Assembly: GCA_016196285.1 (NCBI GenBank)
Contig: JACPXY010000004.1
Location: forward strand, 1-38,551
DNA from: Candidatus Pacearchaeota archaeon
GTDB lineage: Archaea > Nanobdellota > Nanobdellia > Pacearchaeales > GW2011-AR1
Length of the DNA stretch: 38,551 nt
Direction of reading: 5' to 3'
This document shows, one piece after another, positions 13,243 to 30,673 of the stretch. The notes under the pieces are model-generated. The model saw only the letters and a list, made by a program, of their open reading frames with translations. It had not been told where the DNA came from and made no database searches. Position numbers and translations under genes: made by a program. Each line of letters starts with the position of its first letter. The first letter of the stretch is position 1.

Positions 13243-13311
13243 GAGCATCAGAAAAAAGACTATCGTTAGCTCATACAACTAAGATTTTATAGTCAGACAT
13301 CAGGTGATTAT
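13243..13311. repeat. Degenerate internal fragment (D) of the hairpin element family
   Basis: GAGCATCAGAAA..TATCGTTA..CAACT..TCAGACA..GATTAT is colinear with 16009-16077 and 7635-7680. Confidence 0.4.
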
Positions 13312-13413
13312 CTTTGGGACACATCTTACTGTCACAAAAGAATTCTCGGCAAAGAGCGTTAAGAAGCTGTTCACCTGAGCAATATTTAAATACAATTCTG
13401 ATGTATACATAGA

Positions 13414-15693: not shown

Positions 15694-15694
15694 A

Positions 15695-15983: not shown

Positions 15984-16163
15984 TGAAGAACCCTATAGCA
16001 AGACCATAGAGCATCAGAAAGAAGAAACATTATTATGTCCCGCAACTGCTCATCTTTATCAGACACGCGATAATTATAATTGTTAGACTATCTTAGGTTT
16101 ATATTGTAATCCTGCCTTGCTTTATCCCCAAGGCAAGACCTTGGGGTATTGGAAAACAATAAA
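15984..16163 (-). mobile_element. Full copy (B) of a non-autonomous IS200/IS605-like palindrome element (PATE/MITE-like)
   Basis: Two related hairpins (CCCTATAGCAAGACCATAGAG and perfect CCCCAAGG-CAAGA-CCTTGGGG); colinear with 30523-30673; minus strand begins TTTAT and ends GGGTTCTTCA. Confidence 0.7.
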
Positions 16164-16195
16164 CAACCCGTCCGCAGCAAGCTGTGGGGTAAAAC
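16164..16195 (-). repeat. Short CCGCAGCAAGCTGYGG hairpin element (F)
   Basis: AACCCGTCCGCAGCAAGCTGTGGGGTAAAAC is near-identical to 19628-19657. Confidence 0.7.
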
Positions 16196-16226
16196 GATTA
16201 AAGTATATTCATCTCCTTAATTCTTT

Positions 16227-18941
16227 CTATTCAACATAAATTCCTGGCTTGCCCGGTCTGGCTTTCCCTGCTTTGCCGGTTGGGTCATGCTTTTTCGGGT
16301 CGTTGACTGCATATACTTCAACTGACATTCCGACTCTTTTCGTCAGTATCTTTGCAGAGTAAGTATCGTACTCATGAGGCAGTACATAAACATACACTTT
16401 TTCTGGATTCTTCCGCTGTTTCTCCTTAACTAATGCAAGCACGTGTAAAATGTCAGTTACGGTAGTATCAACTGCGTGTTCCGCCTGCTCAAGCTTCATG
16501 TCAATTTGCCCCTCATCATGCTCTGGCCAAGAGGCAAGACTGACAAATCCATTCTTGCCGAAAATGCTCCACACTTCTTCAGCAGTATGGGGACACACTG
16601 GTGCTATCAATCGCACCCATGAGTTGCCTATTAAATAATAGAATGCGTATAGTTCTTTCTTCTCCATAACCAATTTTGCATCTTTCACAAGTCGAAGCAT
16701 ATCAAAGATTGCCGCAGCAGTATATTCACGCAGCTTCATCTGAGATAATTTCTCTCCCGCATTCTTGAGAATGCTATTGAACCGAGAGATAAATAATGGT
16801 CTGACAGCTCCTTTCTTTCGCATCGTAGCAGCTTCCTGCAAGGTCGCATAAACTCGTTCAATCGTAGCTTTTGCATTCTGTGCCTCACTCTCTCTCCAGT
16901 CAAACGTACCTTCAATGTTTGTTGAGTTCGTCAAGTAGAATCTGAATACATCTGCACCGTATTTCTTCTTGATATCCAGCAAAGTGATGACATTTCCCTT
17001 GCTCTTGCTCATCTTGCTCCCCTCACTGACCACTAAGCCATGGAAGCTGATGGCCCTCGGCCAGTAATTCTCAGGAAAGATGCTGGCAAAGGCAAAAAGC
17101 ATGAAGGAGAGATGATTTGGCAAGTGCAGCGTGAAGGTATGTCTCTGGTCAACTGGCATCCAATACTCGAAACTCTTTCGTAACTCGAGAAGCACCGGTT
17201 CCTTGATCTTCGTCTTCTTGGCAACTTCCTTCATTGCACCCTTCCCTGCATAAACATAATCAAAAAAAACAGTGCTCAGCTGCTCACGTTTCAGCTTATT
17301 TTTTCTAATCAAATGATTGATTGTGTAAAGAGTCATATACAGAGTAGAATCTGAGAGCGACTCAATAATCCAATTTGTATCAAAGGGAAACGGTGTCCCC
17401 AGACCGCGCTTCCTGGCGCAAGGCCTCTTGTCAAGCCATGCAAACGTATCAATGAACTGCGCACGGGTACGTTCAGGCAGCAGTTTTGTTTTCTGCAGGC
17501 ACTCAGCTGCTTTCTCTTTCCATCCTGGTGCATTGAAATCAATGAACCATTGGTTATCAAGCAAGGCAACAATAATCTTTCCGCCGCTTCGTGAGACTGC
17601 CTTTCTGCTAGGCTCATACATAATTGCTGCTTCATGCTTTGCTAACATAATGTGCTTCATCTTCTCCTTAGCTTCTTTGACCAGCATGCCTTCATATGCC
17701 TCACAGTTTTCATTCAGCGTTCCTGCATGATATCCTTCTTTATACACTTCCTGCGTCAGTTTCTCAAGCCGAGGATCGTCTTGTGTAATAACCTGTGTTG
17801 TTTCTACAACTTTGACTGCCGCTTTATCGCCATACTTTGCAGTGGTGATGATAGGTATCACCTCAATCTCCTCTATATCTTCAATCTGAGACAGGGTGAA
17901 TCCTATCTTCTTTTTCTGTTCAGCAGAAAGCCGTTGCAGCTCACGTAAAGCTACATAATCATACGGTGCGTCGCTCGGCACAGAAGTTACAATGCCTGTT
18001 CCAACATCAGCATCAACGAACCTTGAAGGCAGGATCATGAGCTCTCGATGAATCATTGGTGCAAGCGCTTTCTTTCCCAGCAAGGATTCTTTCAAGTAAC
18101 CTATTTTCTTGATGTCGCTTCGCTGGTAACGCAGTTTCTCATATCCTTCCTCACTCATAATCCATATCTCCTCGCCTACTTCTGCCTCGATATAACTCAC
18201 TTCTGGATTAATCCACAGGTTCGTCTGTCCAAAAACAGTTTCCGGCCTCAAAGTAGCAGCTACTAAAAATTTCTTCCCGAATGAGAACTTAAGCAAGGTA
18301 AATTCTATCTTTTCCACAGGCTCAGAGTCAGCATCTTGAATGTCATCTTCTCCCATAGCACTCTCATCATCAGGACAATACAGCACCGGATATCTCTCCT
18401 TAATCAAGTAGCCTTTTTTCCTATACTGCTCAAACTGCCAGCTCACCATCTGTTGATGTTCCATATCTCCTGAGGTAAATTGCCTCCTCCAGTCAACGCT
18501 CAATCCGAGCTGCTTGTATTCTTCCATCATACGCGGAATAAAGAAATCGACAATCTTCTGTGGGTTTGCAAATGACTTGACGATTTTCTTGACTTTATCT
18601 TTACTCGTCACATACGCACCAACATATTCTTCATACAAATTGATCTTTTCTGTATCGCCTGCCTTGATGGCTGCAGAGATGCCAAGCACAGGAGTTCCAG
18701 TAATATGAAATGCCATCGGATAGAGCACATTATAACCTTTCATACGGAGGTATCTGCAGAAAATATCGCTCTCGCTTACTGCTCGTCCATGACCTACATG
18801 TAGGCTTCCAGAAATGTAGGGATAGGGAGTCGTGAAGAAGAACTTCTTCTTGCCATCAGGTTCAGCTTCGAATATTCTAGTCTTCTCCCACCTCTGTTGC
18901 CACTTCTTCTCTATCTTTGAGAAGTCAAGTTCGTTTCCCAT
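16227..18941 (-). CDS. leuS: Leucine--tRNA ligase (archaeal type)
   Basis: PYPYISGSLHVGH, ATLRPET, GTGIVTSVPSDAPYD, ESLSDSTLY, KMSKS. Start set at ATG 18941. Confidence 0.97.
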   Translation of the reverse strand: MGNELDFSKIEKKWQQRWEKTRIFEAEPDGKKKFFFTTPYPYISGSLHVGHGRAVSESDIFCRYLRMKGYNVLYPMAFHITGTPVLGISAAIKAGDTEKINLYEEYVGAYVTSKDKVKKIVKSFANPQKIVDFFIPRMMEEYKQLGLSVDWRRQFTSGDMEHQQMVSWQFEQYRKKGYLIKERYPVLYCPDDESAMGEDDIQDADSEPVEKIEFTLLKFSFGKKFLVAATLRPETVFGQTNLWINPEVSYIEAEVGEEIWIMSEEGYEKLRYQRSDIKKIGYLKESLLGKKALAPMIHRELMILPSRFVDADVGTGIVTSVPSDAPYDYVALRELQRLSAEQKKKIGFTLSQIEDIEEIEVIPIITTAKYGDKAAVKVVETTQVITQDDPRLEKLTQEVYKEGYHAGTLNENCEAYEGMLVKEAKEKMKHIMLAKHEAAIMYEPSRKAVSRSGGKIIVALLDNQWFIDFNAPGWKEKAAECLQKTKLLPERTRAQFIDTFAWLDKRPCARKRGLGTPFPFDTNWIIESLSDSTLYMTLYTINHLIRKNKLKREQLSTVFFDYVYAGKGAMKEVAKKTKIKEPVLLELRKSFEYWMPVDQRHTFTLHLPNHLSFMLFAFASIFPENYWPRAISFHGLVVSEGSKMSKSKGNVITLLDIKKKYGADVFRFYLTNSTNIEGTFDWRESEAQNAKATIERVYATLQEAATMRKKGAVRPLFISRFNSILKNAGEKLSQMKLREYTAAAIFDMLRLVKDAKLVMEKKELYAFYYLIGNSWVRLIAPVCPHTAEEVWSIFGKNGFVSLASWPEHDEGQIDMKLEQAEHAVDTTVTDILHVLALVKEKQRKNPEKVYVYVLPHEYDTYSAKILTKRVGMSVEVYAVNDPKKHDPTGKAGKARPGKPGIYVE

Positions 18942-18963
18942 CCACTCTTCTGTAGAATCAATC

Positions 18964-19599
18964 TTAAAAGTCTTTCCACATGCGGAAAAGCCGGACAAGC
19001 GCCTCTGTAATAGGTCTCAATTCAACTTGTTCTTCTTGCTCGTTCTGTTCGAGAACATATTTGCCTGTCGTCTTTGAGATATATAATGGCCTCAAAGGGA
19101 AATAAGGATCCATTGTACCTTTCGGTGTATTCGTCAGAAAACATGGACGAACTGCTTCTTCGTAGAATCCATTTCTTTCAGGAACAGGAGTAAGGAGATA
19201 CAAGCAAGTTCTCCACTCTGCATCTACCTTGCCGCCATAGGACGAAGCCAGATTCTGATAATACTGCAGCATTTTCTCAGCAATTTCTTTAACAGATAAT
19301 GATTTCTCGGAGATTTCTTGAAGAGCATTTCTCTTTACCATGACTGGATCAATTTCTGCACCTGCAATGAAAAAGCCGGAATCATCAGTAAGTATGGGTA
19401 GTGGAGTGAGTGCTGACAAAATGCGGGCTTTCTTCATTGCATTTTCTCTAAGCGTCTTTCCATCTTCTTCAACATCAAACTTCTGTATGCCAATATCCTG
19501 GGGAGTGAGGAGCACGAACGGAGCACCTGCCGAAGAGATAAGCATTTGCATGCGTTTCAATTTCGCCTGATTATTGGAAGCAAAAACCACTTCATGCAT
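18964..19599 (-). CDS. Ham1/RdgB family non-canonical purine NTP pyrophosphatase, divergent
   Basis: VVFASNNQAK, VEEDGKTLRENAMKKA, TDDSGF; the C-terminal SHR motif is absent. Confidence 0.8.
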   Translation of the reverse strand: MHEVVFASNNQAKLKRMQMLISSAGAPFVLLTPQDIGIQKFDVEEDGKTLRENAMKKARILSALTPLPILTDDSGFFIAGAEIDPVMVKRNALQEISEKSLSVKEIAEKMLQYYQNLASSYGGKVDAEWRTCLYLLTPVPERNGFYEEAVRPCFLTNTPKGTMDPYFPLRPLYISKTTGKYVLEQNEQEEQVELRPITEALVRLFRMWKDF

Positions 19600-19620
19600 C
19601 ACGCTCGCAGCGCGTGTGGT

Positions 19621-19662
19621 AATGAAGAACCCAGCCGCAGCAAGCTGCGGGGTAAACCCCAG
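19621..19662 (-). mobile_element. Minimal hairpin element (E)
   Basis: AATGAAGAACCC-AG-CCGCAGC-AA-GCTGCGG-GGTAAACCCC; shares the TGAAGAACC terminus with copies A and B. Confidence 0.65.
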
Positions 19663-19682
19663 TAAGGAATTTAAACCTTGTG

Positions 19683-20036
19683 TTAGAATCCATGAGTAAG
19701 GGATTTTAGAAGACCCTTTTTACGAAGCTGGTTTGCCTGTGATGCATGATACTTGAAGATGACATCGCCCTTGGAATCATCATCTGGCCAAGGCATCACA
19801 AGCACTATATCGTTCGGTCGAAGCCATAATTGTTTCTTGTACTTGCCAGGTACCCTGCAGTTTCTGCTCTTCCCATCAGTAGTTTTGATTTCCATCCGGT
19901 TTCCTCCGTATCGCTGTACAATAATGCCAATCAGTTCGCCTTGGCGTGGCAAACGTACTCTAATGGGCTCCGACTGATCAGGAACCTGTAAAGTCTGTTC
20001 TTGAACCACTTCTTCAAAATCACCATAGTCGACCAT
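19683..20036 (-). CDS. eif1a: Translation initiation factor aIF-1A
   Basis: RVRLPR.GE, YGGNRM, DGKSRNCRVPGK.KKQLW, KGDVIFKY. Confidence 0.95.
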   Translation of the reverse strand: MVDYGDFEEVVQEQTLQVPDQSEPIRVRLPRQGELIGIIVQRYGGNRMEIKTTDGKSRNCRVPGKYKKQLWLRPNDIVLVMPWPDDDSKGDVIFKYHASQANQLRKKGLLKSLTHGF

Positions 20037-20072
20037 CTATCTATGCACAAAAGAGTATTTTTAAACCTATAG

Positions 20073-20855
20073 CTAAGATGACTTGAGTTCGAGGTATAGG
20101 TGTTTAAGGAAGAGAACACCTATGGGAAGCGTTATCGAGCTCATAACAGTTTTAACAATAACACCTAATATGCTATTGACAATAAATAAGCTTATAGAAA
20201 TACCAGTTCCCTGAAGATTCGCCAAGAGGATAGGGATGCCAGTAGGAAGCATGAGGAGTGAACCTGCCAAGGAGATTCCTCCAAGAATTAGAAAGAAGAC
20301 AATAATGCAGCCAAATGTGCGCCACCATCGTCCGCGCACCAATTGAAAGCTAGTACTGAGCGAAGCAAATATGCTTGTCTGCTCAGTAAAGAAAATATAT
20401 GCTGCAGCACTCCAGAATACTGTAAAGATTATGCCTGGGATAATGAGCAAAAGATAGAGAAGAGTCAAGAAGATACCGGTAACAATACAGAAACCGAGAA
20501 ATCTCCAGAATGTTGTACGCCCGAAGCGGGCAAGAGAATTGTATGCTTTCTTGTCTGTACTGACGCTCGCGCTAATTAGTGCACTATAAATGAATAATAT
20601 GAACATAATTAAGACAATTCCTAATATGCTCATGCTCACAAAATATAGTGGACTCACATTGAAGAGATTTACAACCTCGTTTGGATTAGGATTAAGGAGA
20701 GTCTCGCGTAGAGAAGGATCGCTAAGCGTCCAGATATTTGTAACTAATGTAATAATAAGAAAAGGTATACCGAAGAAGATAAGAATAAATAAGAAAAAGC
20801 GTCGAAAATTAGCTCGATACTCATCCCAGCTTCGCTGGAGAATATGCTCTAACAT
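20073..20855 (-). CDS. Polytopic membrane protein (BPSS1780/GDPD-anchor-like)
   Basis: LLLIIPGIIF...SLSTSFQLVRGRWWRTFG...LYLEL. Confidence 0.7.
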   Translation of the reverse strand: MLEHILQRSWDEYRANFRRFFLFILIFFGIPFLIITLVTNIWTLSDPSLRETLLNPNPNEVVNLFNVSPLYFVSMSILGIVLIMFILFIYSALISASVSTDKKAYNSLARFGRTTFWRFLGFCIVTGIFLTLLYLLLIIPGIIFTVFWSAAAYIFFTEQTSIFASLSTSFQLVRGRWWRTFGCIIVFFLILGGISLAGSLLMLPTGIPILLANLQGTGISISLFIVNSILGVIVKTVMSSITLPIGVLFLKHLYLELKSS

Positions 20856-20921
20856 ATTTCTTCATGCTCAATATGCTATTTAAAGCTATAGTTTATATAC
20901 CTTCAAAACAAAAAAAGGAGA

Positions 20922-21176
20922 ATGAAAAAGGCACGGCAGTCCAAATCACAGGTAGTTTCTCAAGGCCTCGCAATTGCAGCGCTTATTCTGAATATCCTAA
21001 TTCTTCCTGGCTTGGGAACCTTGATTGCAGGCAGAATTAAAACCGGAGTGATACAGCTCGTCATTGCACTAATCTCCATTCCTCTAATGTTCCTCATTAT
21101 CGGAATCCCTATATTCCTTATTGTCTGGATCTGGGGAATAGTCACTGCAGTAAACTTGATTAAGGAAGCGAAGTAG
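20922..21176 (+). CDS. Small membrane protein (TM2-like)
   Basis: LNILILPGLGTLIAG..KTGVIQL; 2-3 TM. Confidence 0.7.
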   Translation: MKKARQSKSQVVSQGLAIAALILNILILPGLGTLIAGRIKTGVIQLVIALISIPLMFLIIGIPIFLIVWIWGIVTAVNLIKEAK

Positions 21177-21214
21177 CAGACAACTCTTAAATACCTCACT
21201 TTCCTCATAGAATA

Positions 21215-21727
21215 ATGATTCACGCTTATCTCTCCGGAGACCATATCAACTCAAACGCGAGTGCTGCATTCTCCCTATATGATAAATCTCTCTTTGGTGA
21301 GAAGCGTGGGCAGGTTATTGAATATGCTCCTATAGAAACACTCTATCTAGTACGGGAAGGGTTGATGAGGGTCTTATCAGGCAGCAAGGAGCTCTCCTAT
21401 GATGCTTTATTGCTAAAGTTGAAGAGAAAAGATGCGCGTCTTGGCATGAAATCAGAGGTATTCCATCAGCTAAGAAAGAAAGGATACATAGTGAAAACAG
21501 CGCTGAAGTTCGGGGCAGATTTCCGTATCTATGATAAGGGAGTCAGGCCAGGAAAAGAACATGCTCGCTGGTTGCTTACCTGCTTCAAGGCACATGACAA
21601 AGTAAACTGGCATGACCTTGCTGCGAAATTGCGTGTAGCACATTCTACAAAGAAGAAACTAGTGCTTGCCATAATTGATGAAGAATCATCAGTCTCATAC
21701 TACGAATCCGGCTGGCTCAAGCTCTAG
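21215..21727 (+). CDS. endA: tRNA-splicing endonuclease (single-unit, alpha4-type size)
   Basis: LRKKGYIVKTALKFGADFRIY, catalytic Y/H/K (GKEHA, RVAHSTKKK). Confidence 0.93.
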   Translation: MIHAYLSGDHINSNASAAFSLYDKSLFGEKRGQVIEYAPIETLYLVREGLMRVLSGSKELSYDALLLKLKRKDARLGMKSEVFHQLRKKGYIVKTALKFGADFRIYDKGVRPGKEHARWLLTCFKAHDKVNWHDLAAKLRVAHSTKKKLVLAIIDEESSVSYYESGWLKL

Positions 21728-21783
21728 TAACACCTTCCCAGTAATACGGGAATGTTTATAACATTCCTCCTTTTTCTAAATGC

Positions 21784-22719
21784 ATGCCCCTAGATACATA
21801 TACACTTCAGCGCACAAAGGATCAGATACTCTCATTCATCAGATCCCGTGGACCAAGTCTGCCAGTGCATATCGCCAGGGATGCGAAACTTGAACCTCTC
21901 TTTGCTTCTGCATTCCTCTCAGAACTCTATCGAGAACAGAAATTACTGATGTCGCACCTGAAAGTAGGTAGTTCTTCGCTCTATCTCATTCCAGGACAAG
22001 AAGCGATGCTTGAGAATTTTATCCAGTTCCTAAATCAGAAAGAACAGGAAGCATTCCATGGGTTGAGAAAAGAAAAGATAATTTTGGATGAGCAGCTGCA
22101 GCCTGCAATCAGGGTGGCGATGCGGGCTATCAAAGACTTCGCTATCCCAATTCAGGTAATCTTGAACAACACCCAGAAATTATTCTGGAAATACGCATTC
22201 ATGCCTGATACAGAGGTTCCTGAGCTGCTGAGAAAGCACACATCCTCCAATTCACAAGCACTTGTAAGTATACCGGCGATTGAAGTAAATAAGGAAGTTG
22301 AAAAGACGGAACCTGCGCCTTTGATGCATCTGCAAGAAAGCAAGATAGAAGAACCCCTGCAAACTGAGAAACCAAAGAAGAAAACAAGGAGAACAAAACA
22401 AGAAGACTTGGTCTTCACTACAAGCCTTCGCGAATATCTCTCAGCAAAAGACATTGAGATTCTCCAAGTGATTGAAGAGAAGAAAAAGGAATTGTATGCA
22501 AAAATTAGGATTAACGACCTATTCGGCAAGCAGGAATACTATCTTATCGCCAAGGACAGGAAGAAAGTAAAAGAAGAGGACCTAACCCTTGTATTGCACA
22601 AGGCTCAGCAGGAACGCATGCTTGCCCTTTTCATGGCACCAGGAGAATTAGATAAAAAAGCCATTGAATTCATCAAAGATTACAGGAATTTAGTCAAGTT
22701 TGAAAGGTTGAAATTTTAG
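21784..22719 (+). CDS. Hypothetical protein with N-terminal winged helix
   Basis: ILSFIRSRGPSLPVHIAR...FASAFLSEL...KVGSSSLY; linker; alpha/beta C-terminal domain. Confidence 0.7.
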   Translation: MPLDTYTLQRTKDQILSFIRSRGPSLPVHIARDAKLEPLFASAFLSELYREQKLLMSHLKVGSSSLYLIPGQEAMLENFIQFLNQKEQEAFHGLRKEKIILDEQLQPAIRVAMRAIKDFAIPIQVILNNTQKLFWKYAFMPDTEVPELLRKHTSSNSQALVSIPAIEVNKEVEKTEPAPLMHLQESKIEEPLQTEKPKKKTRRTKQEDLVFTTSLREYLSAKDIEILQVIEEKKKELYAKIRINDLFGKQEYYLIAKDRKKVKEEDLTLVLHKAQQERMLALFMAPGELDKKAIEFIKDYRNLVKFERLKF

Positions 22720-22766
22720 TCTCTATCACAACTAACTTTAAATACCAGTTTTGAGGAGGAAAAGAG

Positions 22767-23060
22767 ATGTCAAAAAGAACAGTTTACTTTGGACCGCCAG
22801 CAGGCAGGTATGAATCTGCTTCCTTTCCTGCATTTGTGCAACAGATCTCCGAGAAATTGGCAGACCAGGGCAGATGCAATGAAGAACACCATGGTCCGCA
22901 CAGCATCACCTATCATTTCCCAGACGCAGGGTTGGGCATCACTTATGCACGGATCAATGAACATCGCTGCATAGTTGACATAATGGGCTCGTCGTCACTT
23001 CTCGAAGAGATGACTTCATTCATTTTCGCAGAAGATAACAAACCTGCTCAAAAAGCTTAA
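22767..23060 (+). CDS. Hypothetical protein
   Basis: 97-aa ORF with TATA at about -29 and GAGGA upstream. Confidence 0.6.
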   Translation: MSKRTVYFGPPAGRYESASFPAFVQQISEKLADQGRCNEEHHGPHSITYHFPDAGLGITYARINEHRCIVDIMGSSSLLEEMTSFIFAEDNKPAQKA

Positions 23061-23086
23061 ATACCCTCTTCCTCAACCTTCTTAAG

Positions 23087-23323
23087 ATGGGACGCATAAA
23101 ATCACTAATGGTCAAAAGAGCAGCTCGTCAGCTGCTGGTGCAGAAGCCAGAGCAGTTCACTGAGAGCTTCACGTACAACAAACAGGTGCTGGGAAGGAAC
23201 ATGCCGAGCATTCCTATTCGGAATAAAATAGCGGGATATATAGCCCGTCTTGTCAAGATGCGCAGAATCGAGAAGGAAAAACCAGCTCCAGCGCCTGTTG
23301 TAGAAGTACAGGAAGCAATATAA
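23087..23323 (+). CDS. rps17e: 30S ribosomal protein S17e
   Basis: MGRIKSLMVKRAA...F..NK...IRNKIAGYI. Confidence 0.95.
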   Translation: MGRIKSLMVKRAARQLLVQKPEQFTESFTYNKQVLGRNMPSIPIRNKIAGYIARLVKMRRIEKEKPAPAPVVEVQEAI

Positions 23324-23551: not shown

Positions 23552-23622
23552 ATATCACATAAGAGAAAACTCCTTATAATCTTTTCCAACAGCCTTAAAA
23601 ACCCTCCTGGGTTTTCAGATTC

Positions 23623-23694
23623 GGCGGTATAGCTCAGTGGTAGAGCACTGCTCTCATAAGGCAGGGGTCCCGAGTTCAATTCTCGGTACCGCCA
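23623..23694 (+). tRNA. tRNA with CAT anticodon (elongator Met most likely; Ile2 not excluded)
   Basis: Acceptor GGCGGTA/TACCGCC, anticodon arm CTGCT-CTCATAA-GGCAG, TTCAA T-loop; no initiator hallmarks; no encoded CCA. Confidence 0.92.
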
Positions 23695-24183
23695 TCATCT
23701 TTTCCACTCAATCTTCTCGCCCTTCTTCAGATGCTTATCGAGAGTCTCCAATTCTTCATAAATCCCTTCAATCAAGGCGTACTGTTTGGCTTCTTCTAAG
23801 TCAACCCATTTATAATCACTCAGAGCCGTGCACAACTGCACTACATCACTTTGAACCTCGGCATACAGGCTTACAATTAAACAAGGAATGCCATCGCTTC
23901 GTATATAGACTAAGCTTGTAACATAGCCGAGTGCATCTACTGCAAGACCTGTCTCTTCCAGCACTTCTCGTCTAGCAACATCCTCAAGTACATGGTACCA
24001 ATGTTCACTTGTATCCTTCTTCCTCAATGCATAATCAAGTACCTTTACCTTCCCTCCAGGCACTGTCCACTTCCCTGGAAACGCCTTCTCCCATTCCGCT
24101 CGCTTGGCTATAAGATATCTCCCTTCTTTAACAGGAATAACCGTAACAACGATATAATGCGCTTGATCCCTGTCATAAGTCAT
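23695..24183 (-). CDS. NUDIX hydrolase
   Basis: FPGKWTVPGG...ARREVLEETGL with an insertion inside the Nudix box. Confidence 0.9.
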   Translation of the reverse strand: MTYDRDQAHYIVVTVIPVKEGRYLIAKRAEWEKAFPGKWTVPGGKVKVLDYALRKKDTSEHWYHVLEDVARREVLEETGLAVDALGYVTSLVYIRSDGIPCLIVSLYAEVQSDVVQLCTALSDYKWVDLEEAKQYALIEGIYEELETLDKHLKKGEKIEWKR

Positions 24184-24235
24184 GAATTCCCTAGTATGAA
24201 AACCTATTTAAAGAAGAGCTCAAGAAAATTGACTA

Positions 24236-24832
24236 ATGAAAGACGAAATAGTATCCTTGTTTGCTTATGACAAAAGTCTCAGCTTTACTGAGATAAAGAA
24301 TAAGATTGGAGAGCGCTCAAGCCATGTTGCCTACTGGCTGAAAAAGTTGCTGCAAGAGAAGATTATACGAAAAAGCGAATTAGTATATCAGTTGACAGAA
24401 GAATCAGAGCACAATATACCCTATCTTTCGCGTTCAAGATCAGCCCTTCCCGTAGTGCTTGTCCATCTGGGAGATGCACAAAAAGCCTTCTTAAGTAAGA
24501 GGAAGAAGAGGCCATATAAAGGATTGCTCGGTCTGCCTGGAGGAAGAGTGCTAGTAGGAGAATCAATCGAGCAGGCAGCAGTAAGAATAATGAAGAGCAA
24601 GCACGGAATTAGTATCGCTAATCCTCGTATCGAAGGTATTGCACTCGAGCACATGCTCCGAGATACTCCGCTCCATACATTTGTGCTCTTTCTTGTCAAG
24701 GCACAGACAAAAGATATCATACCCTATACTGCGCTGAAGAATACTCGCCGAATAATAAAAAGCGATTATGCATTATTGAAAGACAAGAGACAGAGAATCC
24801 GCATGCCGATGCTCAACTCAGTCTATGCATAA
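24236..24832 (+). CDS. wHTH-NUDIX fusion protein (probable regulator)
   Basis: N-terminal LSFTEIK..IGERSSHVAYWLKKL; Nudix box GGRVLVGESIEQAAVRIMKSKHGI lacks the catalytic Glu residues. Confidence 0.8.
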   Translation: MKDEIVSLFAYDKSLSFTEIKNKIGERSSHVAYWLKKLLQEKIIRKSELVYQLTEESEHNIPYLSRSRSALPVVLVHLGDAQKAFLSKRKKRPYKGLLGLPGGRVLVGESIEQAAVRIMKSKHGISIANPRIEGIALEHMLRDTPLHTFVLFLVKAQTKDIIPYTALKNTRRIIKSDYALLKDKRQRIRMPMLNSVYA

Positions 24833-24899
24833 ATAAGATGTAACCACTTAAAAAGTACAATGATAAAAAAGCTTAAATAAGTCTGCATGTTCTAATGAT

Positions 24900-26162
24900 G
24901 TGGCACGCACACTCTTACTGACAAAGATACGAGAAGCTGCAGAACGAGTTAAAGCTAGGAGAAGAATATACCTGCAGAAAGATGTTGCAAAAGAAGCAGG
25001 ATGTTCACTCTCATCGGTATGCGCAGCACTGAACAGCGGGATGCTTTCGCTTAAATCAGTTAATGAGCAAAGAAGAGAATACCTAGCACATATGCTGAAA
25101 AAAGGAGCTCCCCTCTATGAGATTGCATTGAGGGGAGGCCTAGGACTCAATACACTCTATCAATATCTATACACTGAAGAGGTGAATATCCTTGCACTTC
25201 AAATGCCTTTTAGAGATTCAGAAGAAGTCTCTGCACTGATTAAAAGACTCGTACAGGAAGGAAATGAGGAAGTCAGTCGGCTTGCAGAATATGTGTTGAA
25301 AGGTTTAACCTCTCAGCAGATGGGTGATGAAACAGGTGAAACACGTGAAAGCGCCAGGAGAAAGATATGTGCCTTAGGATTGCATACCATTTGGAGAGAG
25401 CAGGAAAAGAGAACATCTAAAAAACTACGTCTTCGAGAAGAGCGGACAGAGATAGCAAGTCTGCTCGAAAAGAGAGTTAAGTATTTGCTTGCTGATCCTG
25501 CGCTCTCTTGGGCTGAGCGGACCGCCTACGAATATAATCTTAAGTCGCAGCTTGGACTTTCAGTACGGGCAATTGCTCATGAAAAACTCGTCAGATTCTT
25601 CTCGCTCTATGAAGAGGCACGGAAAAAAGGAATAGAGATAACATTGGAATATGCTGCTAAAGAAGCCGGTTTCGCAAGAGGCGCACCAGAAGCAGGCCGG
25701 ATTTTAGCACGAATGAATCTTCCCGCATTTCATCCTTACCGGCTATTCCCTGAAAAAGTGCAGGCATTGAAGAAAACAGTAAAATTGGGCTTCCTCAGCT
25801 TAAGAGATATAGCTTATCTTTCTGGAATAAACACAGGTACATTAGGAGAGCATCAGATAAGAACAACTGCTAAAGGGAAGAAACGTCTGCATACAAAGGG
25901 CACTGGAAAGAGTAGAACAGAATTAACATATAGGAAAGCAAGCCGAATCTACCAAGCCATAGACTTAGGATTTTCAAGAGAAGAGACAGCGTTTGTATGC
26001 GATACAACTCAGGACATAGTCTCCTATGCACTCAACCATAAGAGAGAGATCGCTCCGCAAATCATCAAAGCTCTCCAAGTAATCTATCCTGTTATCAAGG
26101 TAACAAAACCCTACAGCACATTCGATGCATCAGCGAACAAGTATAAAGTTACTGCAGAGTAA
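24900..26162 (+). CDS. Multi-HTH hypothetical DNA-binding protein
   Basis: Several HTH-like segments (QKDVAKEAGCSLSSV; YEIALRGGLGLNTL; SQQMGDETGETRESAR; LRDIAYLSGINTGTL; REETAFVCDTTQDIV). Confidence 0.65.
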   Translation: MARTLLLTKIREAAERVKARRRIYLQKDVAKEAGCSLSSVCAALNSGMLSLKSVNEQRREYLAHMLKKGAPLYEIALRGGLGLNTLYQYLYTEEVNILALQMPFRDSEEVSALIKRLVQEGNEEVSRLAEYVLKGLTSQQMGDETGETRESARRKICALGLHTIWREQEKRTSKKLRLREERTEIASLLEKRVKYLLADPALSWAERTAYEYNLKSQLGLSVRAIAHEKLVRFFSLYEEARKKGIEITLEYAAKEAGFARGAPEAGRILARMNLPAFHPYRLFPEKVQALKKTVKLGFLSLRDIAYLSGINTGTLGEHQIRTTAKGKKRLHTKGTGKSRTELTYRKASRIYQAIDLGFSREETAFVCDTTQDIVSYALNHKREIAPQIIKALQVIYPVIKVTKPYSTFDASANKYKVTAE

Positions 26163-26541
26163 TCTTCTTCAACACATCCTCAGCTTCCCCCTTTGCATAG
26201 GTCTTTGTCGGCCAGAAGTTAGCCATGCCATCCTCCTTGTATCGAGGAACGAGGTGTACATGCACGTGAGGCACATCTAATCCGATAATGGAAACAGCAA
26301 CGAAGTCTGCCTGTAATCTTTCCTTGAGATGCACCTGCAGTTTTTTGACCACAGAAAAGATTTTGGGGACAACAGCATCAGGAGTCTCACTTAAGCTGGA
26401 ATAATGCTGCTTCGGAATGACTAGTGTGTGTCCTGGATTGACGGGATTTAAATCCAGAAAAGCACATATCTGTTCATCTTCATACAAAATATAAGCTGAA
26501 ACCTCGTGCTGTGCAATTTTACAGAAGATGCACTCCATCAA
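26149..26541 (-). CDS. HIT family nucleotide hydrolase
   Basis: CIFCKI, PGHTLVIPK, VPHVHVHLVPR. Confidence 0.95.
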   Translation of the reverse strand: MMECIFCKIAQHEVSAYILYEDEQICAFLDLNPVNPGHTLVIPKQHYSSLSETPDAVVPKIFSVVKKLQVHLKERLQADFVAVSIIGLDVPHVHVHLVPRYKEDGMANFWPTKTYAKGEAEDVLKKITLQ

Positions 26542-26542
26542 T

Positions 26543-27349
26543 TCAGATAAACAGCGAACTATAAAAGCTTTCCTTCAAGAGCTGCCGGTTAACCTGCTCT
26601 CGTGAGAAACTAGTAGCGAAGAGCCGATGAAGGAATGAAGGACGTTCATTCATGCCAGTAAGTGCTGCATTCAATGACTTGATTTCACGGGCAAACCTGC
26701 TGTTTCCTTTATACACTGCAGCAGGTATCCGTGTAAAGACTGCCCTGCCATGAATTTTGCTATCAGGAAGCTTGGCAACAACGGGAATGCCTGTCGCATG
26801 CTCTATAGTCTCTATCTCAAGTTCATAATGAGGATCCCGTACCTTATTCACCACAATACCTGCAATTGGTCTGCCGCGCTGTCGTGCGAGATGCGCTGCA
26901 CGAACTGAACACTGTAGGGTCGGTTCATCAGGAGTCGACACAACAAGCAGAGCATCTGATGCCAGGATTGTGGCAAGCATTTCATCATTAAGATTCGGAG
27001 ACGAGTCAAGAACAATGTAATCATAATGGCTCTTTATTTTAGCGAGTTTATCCTTCAGCTTTAGAGGATTAATGTCATACAGATAAAAACCGTTGCCGGG
27101 CATTACATCAACTCCATACCTGCTGTAAATCGCGGATAATACGTGCGCTTTTCCTGCGAGCACATCATGTATCGTGCGCTTCGGATCAGTTACATCCATA
27201 TGGACACCCAGAGTCGGGGATGAAAAGTTAGCATCAACCAGCAGAACTTTCTTGCCATAGGTATTTGCAAGGTCAGTTGCGAGCGAAGACGCTACCGTTG
27301 TCTTGCCCACTCCTCCTTTTATTGAAACAATGCCGAGCGTCCTGCTCAT
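26543..27349 (-). CDS. minD: MinD/ParA family ATPase
   Basis: KGGVGKTT deviant Walker A, VLLVDAN, YDYIVLDSSP, GIVVNKV. Confidence 0.88.
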   Translation of the reverse strand: MSRTLGIVSIKGGVGKTTVASSLATDLANTYGKKVLLVDANFSSPTLGVHMDVTDPKRTIHDVLAGKAHVLSAIYSRYGVDVMPGNGFYLYDINPLKLKDKLAKIKSHYDYIVLDSSPNLNDEMLATILASDALLVVSTPDEPTLQCSVRAAHLARQRGRPIAGIVVNKVRDPHYELEIETIEHATGIPVVAKLPDSKIHGRAVFTRIPAAVYKGNSRFAREIKSLNAALTGMNERPSFLHRLFATSFSREQVNRQLLKESFYSSLFI

Positions 27350-27429
27350 AAGTCCCTCTCAATGTAAAACAGCATAATTCAGTTTAAAACCTTTTCTACA
27401 ATCAGAAGAGATAACGAGTTATCCATAAA

Positions 27430-27500
27430 TGGACCCAGTGAGAATCGAACTCACACCGCTCGACTGCCAGCCGAGCATTCTACCACTGAACTATGGGCCC
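27430..27500 (-). tRNA. tRNA-Ala(GGC)
   Basis: GGGCCCA/TGGGTCC with G3:U70; anticodon arm CTCGG-CTGGCAG-TCGAG; TTCGA. Confidence 0.95.
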
Positions 27501-27532
27501 TTAGATAATTAGAAAAAAAGCAAGTTATAAAT

Positions 27533-28276
27533 CTATTCCAACAGTATCAAAGCAGCCATAACCCCAATTCCAATAATAAAAGCAAGAAGCTGAAGCAAAG
27601 TTGCCCTTATATGATGAGAATGCTTATGCAATTCAGGTATTAAGTCACTTCCTGCGATGTATAGAAATCCTCCAATGGCTAAGGGAATTAAATAACTAAT
27701 CAAGCCTTCAACAGAACTTCCAAGCCATAAAGTAATAACTGCTCCAAGTATTGCAAACAAAGCAGAAGCGAAATTCATTAACAATGCTTTTCTTTTAGAA
27801 AATCCTGCGTGTAATAAGACTCCAAAGTCTCCAATTTCTTGTGGTATCTCATGCAAAGCAACTGCAATAGTAGTTGCAATTCCTGCCGGAATACTAATTA
27901 AATAGCTTCCTGCGATAATGGCTCCGTCAATAAAGTTATGCAATCCGTCTCCAACTAGATTAGTATATGCAAAAGGATGAACATGTTTCTCACTTACAGG
28001 CATATGACAATGTTGCCAATGAATAAATTTCTCCAAGATAAAGAATATAACTATTCCGGCTAATATTGTGAGAGAAGTCTGTAAAGTGAAAGACTCTTCA
28101 ACCAATTCAGGCAGTAAATGAATAAATACATCTCCAAACAAAGCTCCTGCTGAAAAACTGATTAAATAAATCAAAGCAGTTCTAAGTCTTTCATGCTTTA
28201 TTCCTAAAGTAAAAGCTCCGACCAAGCTAATCAAACTGACAATTAAAACACTTAACAGAACATAAATCCATACCAT
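27533..28276 (-). CDS. ZIP family metal (zinc) transporter
   Basis: GDGLHNFIDG, ALHEIPQEIGDFG, His-rich loop, SDLIPEL. Start at ATG 28276. Confidence 0.95.
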   Translation of the reverse strand: MVWIYVLLSVLIVSLISLVGAFTLGIKHERLRTALIYLISFSAGALFGDVFIHLLPELVEESFTLQTSLTILAGIVIFFILEKFIHWQHCHMPVSEKHVHPFAYTNLVGDGLHNFIDGAIIAGSYLISIPAGIATTIAVALHEIPQEIGDFGVLLHAGFSKRKALLMNFASALFAILGAVITLWLGSSVEGLISYLIPLAIGGFLYIAGSDLIPELHKHSHHIRATLLQLLAFIIGIGVMAALILLE

Positions 28277-28306
28277 CAATAAAGCAAAACACAACAATAT
28301 TTAAAG

Positions 28307-28331
28307 CTTATTGATTTTGATTATCAATAAG
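28307..28331. promoter_or_regulatory. Fur-family operator palindrome next to a shared TATA box
   Basis: CTTATTGAT-N7-ATCAATAAG perfect inverted repeat with core TGATTTTGATTATCA; adjoins TTTAAA at 28300-28305. Confidence 0.8.
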
Positions 28332-28700
28332 ATGAGAATAAGAAAAACCAAGCAAGAATTAGAAATAGAAAGAATTTACAATAAGATAAATTCAGTTTTT
28401 ACAGCAGATGATTTATACAATAAGATAAAGCATGAAAAGATAGGGATAGCCACTATTTACCGCTTTTTGAAAGATAAATCTAAGAATCATGAATTGCACA
28501 CTTATTTATGCAATAGAAAAACCCTCTATAGTAAAGAGCAAATAAATCACTGTCATTTTACCTGTGAAAATTGCCATAAAACAATCCACTTCCAGATAAA
28601 AGACATCACACAAATACAAAAATCAATTTCAAATCCCATCTGCCATATTCAAATAGATGCATATGGCTTATGTGAAAAATGTAAAAAGCTAAGCAACTAA
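28332..28700 (+). CDS. Fur/Zur family transcriptional regulator
   Basis: FTADDLY, IGIATIYRFL, HCHFTCENC, YGLCEKC. Confidence 0.92.
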   Translation: MRIRKTKQELEIERIYNKINSVFTADDLYNKIKHEKIGIATIYRFLKDKSKNHELHTYLCNRKTLYSKEQINHCHFTCENCHKTIHFQIKDITQIQKSISNPICHIQIDAYGLCEKCKKLSN

Positions 28701-28931
28701 ACCTTTGTGCTTAATATTCCTAATAACAATAAAGTAAACCAACGCGCCTATCCATCCCCCAACAACAATAACAACCAGCCATATAATCTTCTCGGTCAAA
28801 TTCTTGAAATTTCTCTTAGCACAATCAACAATCATCCATATCCAGAATGCAAATAACAGTATTCCTGCAATCATCATAATTCCAAATCCTGCTGCTAAGA
28901 AAGGAAATCCCCACCAACTATCGAAAAGCAT
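28689..28931 (-). CDS. PLDc_N domain small membrane protein
   Basis: FWIWMIVDC...EKIIWLVVIV..GWIGALVYF. Confidence 0.8.
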   Translation of the reverse strand: MLFDSWWGFPFLAAGFGIMMIAGILLFAFWIWMIVDCAKRNFKNLTEKIIWLVVIVVGGWIGALVYFIVIRNIKHKGLVA

Positions 28932-28962
28932 GCCAATACTATCAATCTGAAATATTTAAACG

Positions 28963-30432
28963 TTACTTAACGCGCGTCTCAACGAGAGTTCCTGCTTTCT
29001 CGAAGGTCTTCTTTCCCTGAACCATGCTTCGTACTGCTGCAGAAAGCTCCTTAATAGGAACGCGAACTTGTTTTGTCGAGTCGCGGTCGCGGATAGTAGC
29101 ACATTTGTCCTTTACTGAATCTTCGTCGATAGTGATGCAGTAAGGCGTGCCAATCTCATCCTGCCGTGCATATCTCCGTCCAATACTTCCTGAAACATCA
29201 AACAAGACTGAAAACTCAGCAAGCAGCTCCTGATACACTGCTCTTGCAAGCTCATATGCCTTCCCTTTGGAGACAAGGGGGAATACTGCTGCTTGATAAG
29301 GTGCAAGTCGCGGAGGCAATCTTAAGACAATATTCTCACGTTTTTTGTCATACGTATACGCCTGGCAGAGCAGGGCAAGGAATACTCTGTCCATGCCAAA
29401 AGTTGGCTCAATGACTCTCGGAACAACTCTCTCCTTGCTCTTCTCGTCAAAAATCTCAAACTTTTCCTTGCTCTCCTTAGCATGCTGGGTCAAGTCATAC
29501 TGTCCGCGGTTTGCATTTCCTGCAAGCTCATTGCTTCCAAAAGAATATTCATAATCTAAATCAAAAGTCGCCGAGGAATAATGGCTCAATTCATCTTTCT
29601 TATGCTCTCTAATTTTAATCTTCTCGGCAATTCCTAAATGCTCAAACCATAATACTTGTTCAGCAAGCCAATACGCATGCCACTCATCCAATCGCTTCTC
29701 CTTGACCATCTGGCCAATAGTAGTGTTTTTCAATGCGTCTGTTCCTTTCTCTTGGCTCTCAGCATCCAGAAGACGAACCTTTACCTTAGTATGAGTATCA
29801 TCAAGTAATGCACACTTCATCTCATGAGGATGAATAAAGAACTCAAATTCTCCTATGGTAAACTCTCTGCTTCTGAATAAAAAGTCTCTGGGAGCAATCT
29901 CATTCCGAAAGCACTTTCCAACTTGGAGAATGCCGAAAGGCAATTGCTTTCTCGAAGTCTCCTGTATCAGCTTAAAGTCCATGAACATCGCCTGCGCTGT
30001 TTCTCCGCGCAGGTAAGTATCTGATTGATTCAATGCTCCGACGCGTGTCTTGAACATTAAATTGAACTCGCCCAGGGATTCGTACTCTCCAGAACATTCG
30101 CACTTCACTTTGCCAAGCTCGCTCTTGTCAATCTTCGTTGACTTCTTGCACTTCTTGCAAACAACAGCCACATCGCTGAAGCTTGCTAAGTGCCCTGAAG
30201 CTTTCCAAGTGCGTGGATGGGAGATAATTGAGGCCTCAATGCCAGTCATATTCTCTTTCGAATGCACAAACCATCTCCAGAAATCCTGTTTCAGATTCTT
30301 GAATAATTCAGCTCCCAATGGCCCATAATCCCAGAAACCGGAAAAGCCGCCATAAATCTCGCTCGATTTGAATACAAATCCCTTCCGCTTGCAGAAAGTA
30401 GCCAATTCCTCAATGCTTAGTTCAACGCTCAT
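28963..30432 (-). CDS. glyS: Glycine--tRNA ligase (alpha2 type)
   Basis: KRKGF..SSEIYGG, WKASGH, YLRGETAQ, GKCFRNEI, VIEPTFGMDR, GSIGRRYARQDEIGTP. Confidence 0.97.
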   Translation of the reverse strand: MSVELSIEELATFCKRKGFVFKSSEIYGGFSGFWDYGPLGAELFKNLKQDFWRWFVHSKENMTGIEASIISHPRTWKASGHLASFSDVAVVCKKCKKSTKIDKSELGKVKCECSGEYESLGEFNLMFKTRVGALNQSDTYLRGETAQAMFMDFKLIQETSRKQLPFGILQVGKCFRNEIAPRDFLFRSREFTIGEFEFFIHPHEMKCALLDDTHTKVKVRLLDAESQEKGTDALKNTTIGQMVKEKRLDEWHAYWLAEQVLWFEHLGIAEKIKIREHKKDELSHYSSATFDLDYEYSFGSNELAGNANRGQYDLTQHAKESKEKFEIFDEKSKERVVPRVIEPTFGMDRVFLALLCQAYTYDKKRENIVLRLPPRLAPYQAAVFPLVSKGKAYELARAVYQELLAEFSVLFDVSGSIGRRYARQDEIGTPYCITIDEDSVKDKCATIRDRDSTKQVRVPIKELSAAVRSMVQGKKTFEKAGTLVETRVK

Positions 30433-30522
30433 GTATATATGTCTTAAAAAGTCTATTTAAAGTATTCTGCATAAGCTATCTAAACAATGAATAGGGGCTA
30501 TATCAAGATTGAGTACTATAAA

Positions 30523-30673
30523 GAAGAACCCTAAAGCAAGACCATGGTGCATCAGAAGAAGAAACTTTATTATCTCCTGCAACTACTCATCTTTATCGGA
30601 CACAAGATAATTATGTTGTAATCCTGCCTTGTTTCATCCCTGGTAAGACATTGAGGTATTAGAAAACAATAAA
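30523..30673 (-). mobile_element. Full, more decayed copy (C) of the palindrome element
   Basis: Colinear with 15985-16163 apart from an indel of about 26 nt; both hairpins carry mismatches. Confidence 0.7.

Follow-up and report, generated by a model that had tools for sequence, protein, structure and literature searches.

Here we describe a dispersed family of short, gene-less hairpin elements in the genome of a Candidatus Pacearchaeota archaeon. Two of its copies, B and C, lie in the window, that is, the whole stretch of DNA analysed here (38,551 nt of contig JACPXY010000004.1). We regard B and C as very probably non-autonomous, transposase-less and PATE-like derivatives of an IS200-group element of the IS200/IS605 family, because the same ends bracket a Y1 transposase gene in sister genera. 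A sequence-only reading of the window had proposed just such a family, and the proposal is borne out by further copies in the genome, by an unoccupied site at genus level and by a tnpA gene with matching ends in the lineage. Also in keeping with an IS200 derivative are the conserved TTTAT on the 5′ side, the TTCAC end and the fact that neither terminal inverted repeats nor target duplications occur. No description of the family was found in the literature on DPANN MITEs and repeats and on archaeal palindrome-associated transposable elements.

A single gap of 25 nt is all that interrupts the end-to-end alignment of B (15983/4-16163) with C (30521/3-30673), much as first read (an indel of ~26 nt), and the ungapped blocks are 88-91% identical. 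Chance likeness is ruled out by the E values that both obtain in nhmmer with a profile built from 21 genome copies (Table 1). Both copies are intergenic. B lies between an ORF at 15801-15983 (+) and the LeuRS gene (16227-18998, -), and C between the gene of a 56-aa Zn-ribbon protein (30766-30936, -) and the GlyRS gene (28963-30432, -); the ORFs within B and C are 25-41 aa long and have no family assignment. The top strand of B is the minus strand of the window, on which both copies begin TTTAT-TGTTTTC, as had been noted. On the same strand B ends in GGGTTCTTCAC, with 15983 as its last base, and C in GGGTTCTTCTT, its last bases being TTCTT instead of TTCAC. The right end of B fits the pattern GATG-N6-GGTCTTGCC-N9-TTCAC with 1 mismatch. 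Each copy was said to contain two hairpins in direct orientation; both are good in B and both are damaged in the decayed copy C, in which one loop has become TCTTA, 2 nt are missing from one arm and, of the 8 pairs of the other stem, 4 Watson-Crick pairs and 1 G:T pair remain. A B-like copy elsewhere in the genome (BLAST, 96% identity over 167 nt) has AAGAT in place of TTTAT.

Table 1 Copies of the family, their parts and related hairpins in the window
Feature	Position	Strand	Evidence or remark
Copy A, solo right end CTGATG-TCCTATGG-TCTTG-CCATAGG-TTCTTCAT plus short core stretch	7609..7678	-	nhmmer E=9.8e-5
Weak partial copy, profile positions 15-101	13234..13317	-	nhmmer E=5.6e-5
Copy B, element proper, 176 nt	15983..16158	-	nhmmer E=7e-54, profile positions 1-179; ends from comparing 36 and 37 copies
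B right-end hairpin CTCTATGG-TCTTG-CTATAGGG, two G:T pairs	15991..16011	-	CTGATG before, TTCTTCAC after
B left-end hairpin CCCCAAGG-TCTTG-CCTTGGGG	16126..16146	-	AATA before, ATAAAG after
TTTAT pentanucleotide 5′ of B, presumed target and left cleavage site	16159..16163	-	probable flank, not element
Solo right-end-like hairpin, loop GCTTGC, end ...GGGTTGTTTAT	16164..16193	-	86% identity to 19621-19656; resembles subfamily III right ends
Solo right-end-like hairpin CCGCAGC-TT-GCTGCGG, then GGGTTCTTCAT	19621..19656	-	between eIF-1A and Ham1-like genes
Copy C, short form without 25-nt core segment, decayed	30521..30668	-	nhmmer E=3e-36; alignment; end sequence
TTTAT pentanucleotide 5′ of C	30669..30673	-	sequence

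Further copies had been predicted, and the 0.86-Mb, 81%-complete assembly of 72 contigs yielded 69 nhmmer hits (E<0.01), which merge into 67 elements and amount to 9,066 nt, or 1.05% of the assembly. Nearly all copies are intergenic, and 54 of 646 intergenic spacers are occupied. Both ends are present in 14 of the 67 elements, and complete copies measure 153-272 nt. Read on the top strand, the left half consists of TTTAT, ~12 nt, an 8-bp hairpin with the loop TCTTG and a variable core, and the right half of CTGATG, a second hairpin with the loop TCTTG and then TTCTTCAC. The element ends, TGTTTTCCAATA... and ...GGGTTCTTCAC, are not inverted copies of one another, the hairpins lie 12 nt (left) and 8 nt (right) from them, and no terminal inverted repeats were found in the complete copies examined. 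Target duplication is absent in 14/14 complete copies, whose flanks match over 0-3 nt by chance. TTTAT stands at the 5′ end of 26/36 copies and TTCAC at the 3′ end of 24/37; the base directly after the 3′ end is T in 26/37 copies, compared with a genome T frequency of 0.29. The stems covary around a fixed loop (CCCTATGG/CCATAGGG, CCACGAGG/CCTCGTGG, CCCCACGG/CCGTGGGG and CCACAAGG/CCTTGTGG), and on the top strand there are 34 G:T pairs versus 19 A:C. With three subfamilies mixed in the alignment, RNAalifold on 22 copies gave no more of the left hairpin than 6 pairs. Pairs of copies have a median identity of 65%, and two loci share one 83-nt right-end piece without any difference. The family may now be largely fossil, because its best full-length pairs are only 95-96% identical (95.5% at most in the pairwise comparison). 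Partial copies 4.7 kb apart on contig C18 were considered as a composite element, a reading that was rejected as they flank housekeeping genes and no transposase.

BLASTN of B in 40 relatives gave weak hits only, in four of them, and the parent element was recognised because one such hit stood 61 nt from a Y1 gene. In sister genera, the same two ends bracket the gene of a 145-aa Y1 transposase (PF01797), which makes up an IS200-type element of ~536 nt with tnpA as its only gene. On contig C52 of genome G022, TTTAT, 11 nt and CCCCAAGG-TCTTG-CCTTGGGG-ATAAAGC are found upstream of the 145-aa ORF, and the left-end hairpin of B and its flanks are identical to this left end. Directly after the stop codon, on the same strand, comes GATG-CCCTAAGG-TCTTG-CCTTAGGG-AGCTTCAC. 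The ORF matches PF01797 Y1_Tnp with E=7.6e-32; its nearest solved relatives are the Y1 transposases 2XM3 (E=4e-18) and ISHp608 2A6M (E=1e-10), and its HVH motif and C-terminal Tyr align with 2XM3. Besides this locus, at least nine further genomes of the same taxonomic family have a tnpA gene that is bracketed by the same hairpins or abutted by the right end. The Y1 transposase with matching ends that had been expected in the lineage is thus present there.

Of the taxonomic family's 301 genomes, 17 contain the right-end pattern; the genome described here has 20 hits and no other has more than 4, and reversing the pattern as a control gave 0 hits throughout. Among the 27 right ends listed in other genomes, 10 abut a near full-length tnpA gene (65-100% identical to that of G022), 7 abut a tnpA gene cut by a contig end, and 10 are without tnpA within the locus. 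TTTAT also precedes the parent elements in G022, G212 and G273, and the relatives have, in addition, a second left-end type with TATA before the hairpin and a TTGAT-like 5′ sequence. The gene-less copies probably arose by deletion from a tnpA-bearing element. Signs of such an origin are a deletion derivative on contig C32 of G273, which keeps the 3′ coding remnant of tnpA, and a 62-nt terminal-only copy formed by loop-to-loop fusion on contig C45 of the present genome. No similarity to the parent element was detectable in the ~90-nt core of the gene-less copies.

No cognate transposase with matching ends was found in the 81%-complete assembly itself. The sole Y1 gene lies at the contig ends C41/C42/C37 and is 28% identical to the cognate type; it has at least two right-end copies, and its hairpin ends are unrelated to the family. 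With so distant a protein, and with ends on which the family profile has no significant match (E=2.4), the resident IS200-like element was rejected as parent.

The sequence-only reading had also called for empty sites, and here the outcome is divided: an orthologous unoccupied site was found at genus level for copy C, and no exact site at strain level. The spacer between the Zn-ribbon and GlyRS genes is 333 nt long in the window, with copy C inside; across six same-genus genomes that keep the synteny, it measures 53-73 nt in four and 180 nt in a fifth. These genomes are 46-59% identical in the LeuRS piece and 61-85% in the GlyRS piece, and nucleotide alignment of their spacers was unworkable because they are too divergent. 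A metagenome scan with the LeuRS C-terminus, in which relatives were at most 48% identical, found no strain-level empty site, and four groundwater DNA runs from one study (contigs only, depth ~4-5) contained no joints over positions 13000-32999 of the window. The rise in depth over B and C arises because the copies collapse.

By analogy with IS608 and ISDra2, movement of the elements might proceed as follows. The active strand would be the minus strand of the window. Acting in trans, a dimer of a Y1 (HUH) transposase would bind both subterminal hairpins when the top strand becomes single-stranded at the replication fork. On the left it would cut 3′ of the TTTAT flank, ~12 nt ahead of the left hairpin, and on the right 3′ of TTCAC, 8 nt beyond the right hairpin. 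A single-stranded circle would thereby be released, to be re-inserted 3′ of another TTTAT without duplication of the target. The single-strand circle, the exact cleavage positions, any activity today and the place from which the transposase comes are all inferred. The tetranucleotide AATA directly 5′ of the left hairpin is the complement of TTAT in the same order, a parallel to IS608, in which the guide AAAG corresponds to the target TTAC (PMC3201880). The complementarity between AATA and TTAT may be a coincidence, because the second left-end type of the relatives (TATA, TTGAT-like) breaks the simple form of the rule.

Adjacent copies on one contig are on the same strand in 29/33 cases, and adjacent pairs more than 1 kb apart are co-oriented in 24/28 (p=2e-4). 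Judged by third codon positions, the strand richer in G/T is the one that carries the top strand in 17/23 contigs, with 6/23 in disagreement, and contig sign-flip tests of orientation against skew gave p=0.0006 (keto), 0.006 (GC) and 0.002 (TA). No rule emerged relative to the genes on either side: among copies set between tandem genes, 12 point the same way as the genes and 17 the opposite way. Copy orientation thus appears tied to strand composition, which indirectly fits integration into the template of the lagging strand, as described for IS608, ISDra2 and other family members (PMC5027513).

Several other readings of these copies have to be weighed. One is that they are domesticated hairpins of the REP/BIME kind and no selfish transposon derivative, kept by the host to act, for instance, at mRNA ends or in structuring the chromosome, with a RAYT-type Y1 enzyme from a single-copy gene to maintain them. 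Their intergenic position with enrichment between convergent genes (20/60 placed hits versus 113/646 background intergenic regions), the independent dispersal of solo hairpin modules, the mosaic make-up of the copies and the presence of a Y1 gene in the genome would all suit this reading. It is nevertheless very unlikely. The matching Y1 genes of the relatives are multi-copy and IS200-like, bracketed by two hairpins in direct orientation, and not single-copy genes between inverted REPs; the resident Y1 gene has right-end copies of its own with unrelated ends; orientation tracks the DNA strand and not the neighbouring genes; many copies are decayed; and the units consist of two hairpins and a core instead of short single palindromes. 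Slightly less probable still is that the copies are genes of small structured RNAs, among them stand-alone omega-RNA-like guide scaffolds that read into differing flanks. The sequence-only reading had pointed out that their size would suit such a scaffold, but the guide-RNA idea is without support because the assembly has neither a cognate transposase nor TnpB. Searches for TnpB- or IscB-type domains (PF07282, PF01385) gave 0 matches in the 81%-complete genome, while the controls matched; the parent element encodes tnpA only; and Rfam returned nothing beyond 4 tRNAs at the gathering score and a single chance-level hit (E=0.86) at a relaxed threshold. The minus strand does fold better than shuffled sequence (z=-2.26, versus -1.58 for the plus strand), the size of ~150-180 nt is suitable, and the stems covary with G:U pairs that favour one strand. 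However, covariation and strand bias are equally expected of single-stranded DNA hairpins recognised by a Y1 transposase, and the consensus fold of the whole element gave the terminal hairpin only.

That the copies are classical TIR MITEs moved by a DDE transposase, or degenerate CRISPR-like repeat units, is hardly credible. They are short, intergenic and numerous, as such a reading would have it, and after each hairpin on the plus strand comes a tail (AUCAGAAAG, UAUUGGAAAAC), which we take to be only superficially like the tails of CRISPR repeats. For MITEs, however, terminal inverted repeats and target duplication would be needed, and the 14/14 complete copies have neither; for CRISPR units, the copies are dispersed singly with a conserved core and not in arrays with variable spacers, and the plus-strand reading was dropped for lack of arrays. 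A reading of the CUGAUG/GAUGAG words as those of a C/D-box or K-turn sRNA was likewise dropped, as their spacing, judged by eye only, is unfit. There is a small chance that the copies remain mobile through an enzyme encoded outside the archaeon's own chromosome, by a virus, a plasmid or a partner organism, or through the resident 28%-identical Y1 enzyme working across hairpin types, or that the host has adopted the strand-locked hairpins as a REP-like signal with a structural or replication-related role. If either were so, the direction of replication in fragmented DPANN genomes could readily be read from their strict polarity.

Taken as PATE-like derivatives of an IS200-group element, the copies have their closest counterparts in the PATEs of Haloquadratum walsbyi, such as HqIRS46 (Dyall-Smith et al. 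2011, PMC3119063). Of the features in the PATE definition given in that source, the family shows the lack of TIRs, the near-terminal palindromes, the lack of duplication and, in relatives, palindromes linked to tnpA. Members of both groups are too short for a transposase gene and lack terminal inverted repeats; their near-terminal palindromes are related to those of IS200/IS605-type transposons, and their insertion leaves no target duplication (PMC3119063). Both also have a conserved targeting sequence of 4-5 nt on the 5′ side, a distance from end to palindrome that is greater at the 5′ than at the 3′ end, and heterogeneous as well as homogeneous subfamilies (PMC3119063). Terminal-only versions produced by deletion between the palindromes are 52 bp long in Haloquadratum (PMC3119063), and a 62-nt copy is their counterpart here. 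The two differ in host, which is a haloarchaeon in one case and a DPANN groundwater archaeon with a genome of ~1 Mb in the other, and in parentage: the parent here is a tnpA-only IS200-group element, whereas the Haloquadratum PATEs are, in that account, mostly tied to the IS1341 type, which carries tnpB (PMC3119063). There is no sequence similarity between the Haloquadratum PATEs and the present family.

The cognate TnpA is a Y1/HUH enzyme, as are those of IS608 (Helicobacter pylori) and ISDra2 (Deinococcus radiodurans), and in all three systems one strand carries a pair of subterminal hairpins that are directly oriented (PMC3201880, PMC5027513). Cleavage occurs 19 and 10 nt from the hairpins in IS608 and would occur ~12 and 8 nt from them here; insertion without duplication takes place 3′ of an AT-rich word, TTAC in IS608 and presumably TTTAT here; and in all of them the tetranucleotide that precedes the left hairpin is a same-order complement of the target (PMC3201880, PMC5027513), here perhaps by coincidence. 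Orientation is tied to the lagging-strand template in IS608 and ISDra2 (PMC5027513), a link to which the strand-composition bias here would correspond by analogy. By contrast with these two, the copies here are gene-less, reside in an archaeon, have their own hairpins, TCTTG loop and target and end words, and are known from sequence alone. With the REP/BIME-RAYT (TnpA-REP) systems, the family has in common intergenic hairpins related to IS200/IS605 ends, mosaic clusters and a link to Y1 enzymes (PMC3333891). REPs, however, are described as short palindromes that stand singly and often flank a single-copy RAYT gene as inverted pairs (PMC3333891), whereas the present elements combine two different direct hairpins with a core, and the enzyme gene of their relatives lies inside a multi-copy IS200-like element.

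The elements are thus of a known, PATE-like kind, and the find is solid but ordinary, with no new mechanism revealed. It shows that IS200 elements of the single-strand "peel and paste" type have spread, together with derivatives that lack genes, into very small DPANN genomes, and a parent element with its transposase is now supplied for this gene-less hairpin family. TIR-based MITE surveys, such as that of PMC11602168, would miss elements of this type, so their number is probably underestimated in censuses of non-autonomous elements in archaea. For uncultured archaea, the polarity of such copies may be of use in working out how contigs lie with respect to replication.

The remaining pieces in the window are solo ends and partial copies (Table 1). 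Of these, the hairpin at 16164-16193 adjoins B, which lies directly 3′ of the TTTAT of that hairpin, and the homology between 16158-16193 and 19621-19656 extends through this TTTAT. B may therefore be a nested insertion next to the solo hairpin.

Copies B (15983/4–16163) and C (30521/3–30673) align over their full length with one 25-nt gap, as the sequence-only reading had noticed (it put the gap at about 26 nt), and a third family piece lies in the window at 7609–7643. The window is one whole contig (C15) of an 863,944-bp assembly of 72 contigs that is 81% complete; it carries archaeal translation genes (eIF-1A, LeuRS, GlyRS and AlaRS), and its DNA is present in four groundwater metagenome runs from a single study. 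A genome census by BLASTN, then with a profile built from 21 copies (E < 0.01), gave 69 profile matches that merge into 67 elements spanning 9,066 nt (1.05% of the assembly). Some contigs, for example C55 and C6, stop partway through a copy. Measured against a rough ORF annotation with 88% coding, almost all matches are intergenic, and 54 of 646 intergenic regions are occupied, with a median length of 276 nt versus 67 nt for unoccupied ones. Copies sharing the core also occur in three genomes of the same genus (G002, G006 and G004) and in G071 and G074. Elements cluster locally at C57:5745–6253 and C10:2809–7382; on C57, the right end of one copy directly joins the left end of the next without TTTAT (...GGGGTTGTTCTC|TTTTTCCTAATG), an arrangement that resembles a right-end/left-end junction.

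Read on the window minus strand, the element top strand, the copies have sharp ends, and their two hairpins are in direct orientation. Neither inverted termini nor a target duplication was found in any of the 14 complete copies examined. Both hairpins of copy B are in good shape; copy C, a short form, has decayed, with damage to its stems and TTCTT as its end. The stems covary across genomes around a constant TCTTG loop. Counted over distinct stems, 34 G:T pairs on the minus strand versus 19 A:C give a bias in favour of that strand, and folding scores relative to shuffled sequence were z = −2.26 for the minus strand and z = −1.58 for the plus strand. Three copies (C72:5453–5724, C66:1575–1804 and C39:885–1131) are enlarged, at a single insertion point in the core, by a module of about 100 nt with two hairpins (GGATAACTGC...GCAGTTATCC and GAGAATTGCGTA...TACGCAGTTCTC); the pattern suggests a small repeat lodged inside another.

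Parts of a family copy, in order along the element top strand
Part	Features	Strand	Occurrence
1, 5' side	TTTAT	minus	26/36 copies reaching the left end
2	about 12 nt, the last four AATA	minus	
3, left hairpin	8-bp stem, loop TCTTG, then ATAAAG	minus	
4, core	three subfamily types; optional 25-nt and ~100-nt modules	minus	
5, right hairpin	CTGATG, then 8-bp stem, loop TCTTG	minus	
6, right end	TTCTTCAC	minus	TTCAC in 24/37 copies reaching the right end

Ends of this kind bracket a transposase gene in relatives. Y1_Tnp is present in 39 of 121 surveyed genomes of the same taxonomic family, and in one of these, G022, the match (C52:26615–26980) lies 61 nt from a BLASTN match to the hairpin end of copy B. 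There, a left end (TTTAT + 11 nt + CCCCAAGG-TCTTG-CCTTGGGG-ATAAAGC) is followed on the same strand by a 145-amino-acid ORF encoding a Y1 transposase (PF01797, E = 7.6e-32; nearest solved structures 2XM3 and the ISHp608 transposase 2A6M) and, directly past its stop codon, by the right end (GATG-CCCTAAGG-TCTTG-CCTTAGGG-AGCTTCAC), making a unit of about 536 nt end to end. Across 301 genomes of the taxonomic family, the right-end pattern occurs in 17, with 20 matches in the present genome and at most four in any other; a reversed control pattern gave none. Among the 27 right ends listed in other genomes, 10 adjoin a near full-length tnpA (65–100% identical to that of G022), with the left hairpin recognizable 460–509 nt upstream in six, and seven adjoin a tnpA cut off by a contig end. 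The remaining 10 lie in loci that lack tnpA; for four of them a left-end hairpin stands 125–294 nt upstream, giving what look to be short elements with no gene. Of these four, G273:C32 keeps a 3' coding remnant of tnpA and therefore arose by internal deletion. A Y1 transposase with matching ends is thus present in the lineage, which supports the proposal that the family is a non-autonomous, PATE-like (palindrome-associated transposable element) IS200/IS605 derivative.

In the genome itself, Y1_Tnp matches three times, each time at the end of a contig (C41:13174–13474, C42:6261–6499 and C37:7379–7617). The three matches belong to one IS200-like element that is split among these contigs and has two or more right-end copies or insertion sites; its right end (...GGGCAGGGAGGATGTCAC) holds a GCGAAGC mini-hairpin, and its hairpin ends are unrelated to those of the family. 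A tblastn search with the G022 TnpA found only this resident, 28%-identical gene, which falls short of proving that the cognate enzyme is absent, given the incomplete assembly and its breaks at repeats. No TnpB-type domain was found in the 81%-complete assembly, and the earlier aside that the copies might be guide-RNA scaffolds is left unsupported.

TTTAT is most likely flank rather than element, judging from sequence comparison: no other word is as conserved, and the next 12 nt differ between subfamilies, the copy at C70:36239 (96% BLAST identity to B over 167 nt) has AAGAT there, and the TTTAT of copy B also ends an older, right-end-like solo hairpin (16164–16193). The paralogue of this hairpin (19621–19656) aligns with it through TTTAT. 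The base after the right end is T in 26 of 37 copies and a reverse-complemented stop codon is frequent at that place, which fits insertion into TTTAT words just past gene ends. AATA before the left hairpin complements TTAT in the same order. IS608 offers a parallel: its guide AAAG goes with target TTAC, and its cleavage sites lie 19 and 10 nt away from the hairpins (PMC3201880). Because relatives also have a second left-end type that departs from the simple complement rule, the guide–target match is suggestive only. Next to copy B, whose last base completes the TAG stop of ORF 15801–15983, a PIN-domain-like frame is split over that ORF and the overlapping ORF 15674–15844, downstream of a small antitoxin-like ORF (15475–15693; all identified by eye); the split reflects either a frameshift in a toxin-like gene or an error in sequencing.

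Adjacent copies on the same contig are co-oriented in 29 of 33 pairs (24 of 28 when the two copies lie over 1 kb apart, p = 2e-4). Orientation shows no link to neighbouring genes (17 copies anti-oriented and 12 co-oriented in tandem gene contexts; rho = −0.18, p = 0.3 against gene-strand bias) and follows strand composition. With third-codon skews corrected for coding strand as the difference of plus-strand and minus-strand genes, 17 of 23 contigs have the element top strand on the G/T-rich strand (p = 0.0006 for keto, 0.006 for GC and 0.002 for TA skew in sign-flip tests by contig). As a rule, G/T richness marks the leading-strand sequence, which is the lagging-strand template. IS608, ISDra2 and other family members are described as excising from and inserting into the lagging-strand template (PMC5027513). 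The tie of the top strand to this template is indirect, and six of 23 contigs disagree.

At the site of copy C, the Zn-ribbon–GlyRS gene pair is kept in six of eight genomes of the genus, this one included, with a spacer of 53–73 nt in four genomes, 180 nt in G002 and 333 nt here. The empty sites sought by the sequence-only reading thus exist as unoccupied spacers at genus level, not as an exact empty-site allele. Copy C sits between upstream terminator-like T-runs and a retained GlyRS promoter-like TTTAAATA box. The G002 spacer holds different AT-rich palindromes (AAAAATCCTTTTAGGATTTTT, GAAACCTTTAAAGG-like), and related genomes seem to carry hairpin repeats of their own.

IS200/IS605 is reported to be more widespread in archaea than any other IS family (PMC13343696). 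As tabulated in the account of PATEs (PMC3119063), these are too short for a transposase, lack inverted termini, have near-terminal palindromes and make no target duplication; the present family shares all four features, the relation of its palindromes to IS200/IS605-type ends and an end-to-palindrome distance longer at the 5' than at the 3' side. Both also have terminal-only versions made by inter-palindrome deletion (62 nt at C45 here, 52 bp in Haloquadratum). A TIR-based MITE census, judged by its methods (PMC11602168), would miss such elements, and we found no published description of the family in these papers or in the literature on DPANN repeats and MITEs or archaeal PATEs. Modest added interest comes from how far the family has expanded in a genome of about 1 Mb, from the lack of its cognate enzyme in the assembly and from its clear strand polarity.

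Another dispersed hairpin repeat, TTGAG-CCGTAG-CAAG-CTACGG-AGTATTC.ACTCAA, has five copies in the genome (C9:1000, C22:781, C35:15391, C54:1022 and C58:643), and the same word lies inside a short element of the relative G238 (L105). Elsewhere in the window, a 420-amino-acid ORF (24900–26162), with a tRNA-Met gene (23623–23694) some 1.2 kb away, has only a sub-threshold resolvase-type HTH match (PF02796, 22.8 bits versus a cut-off of 23.8); it may encode an integrase or recombinase.
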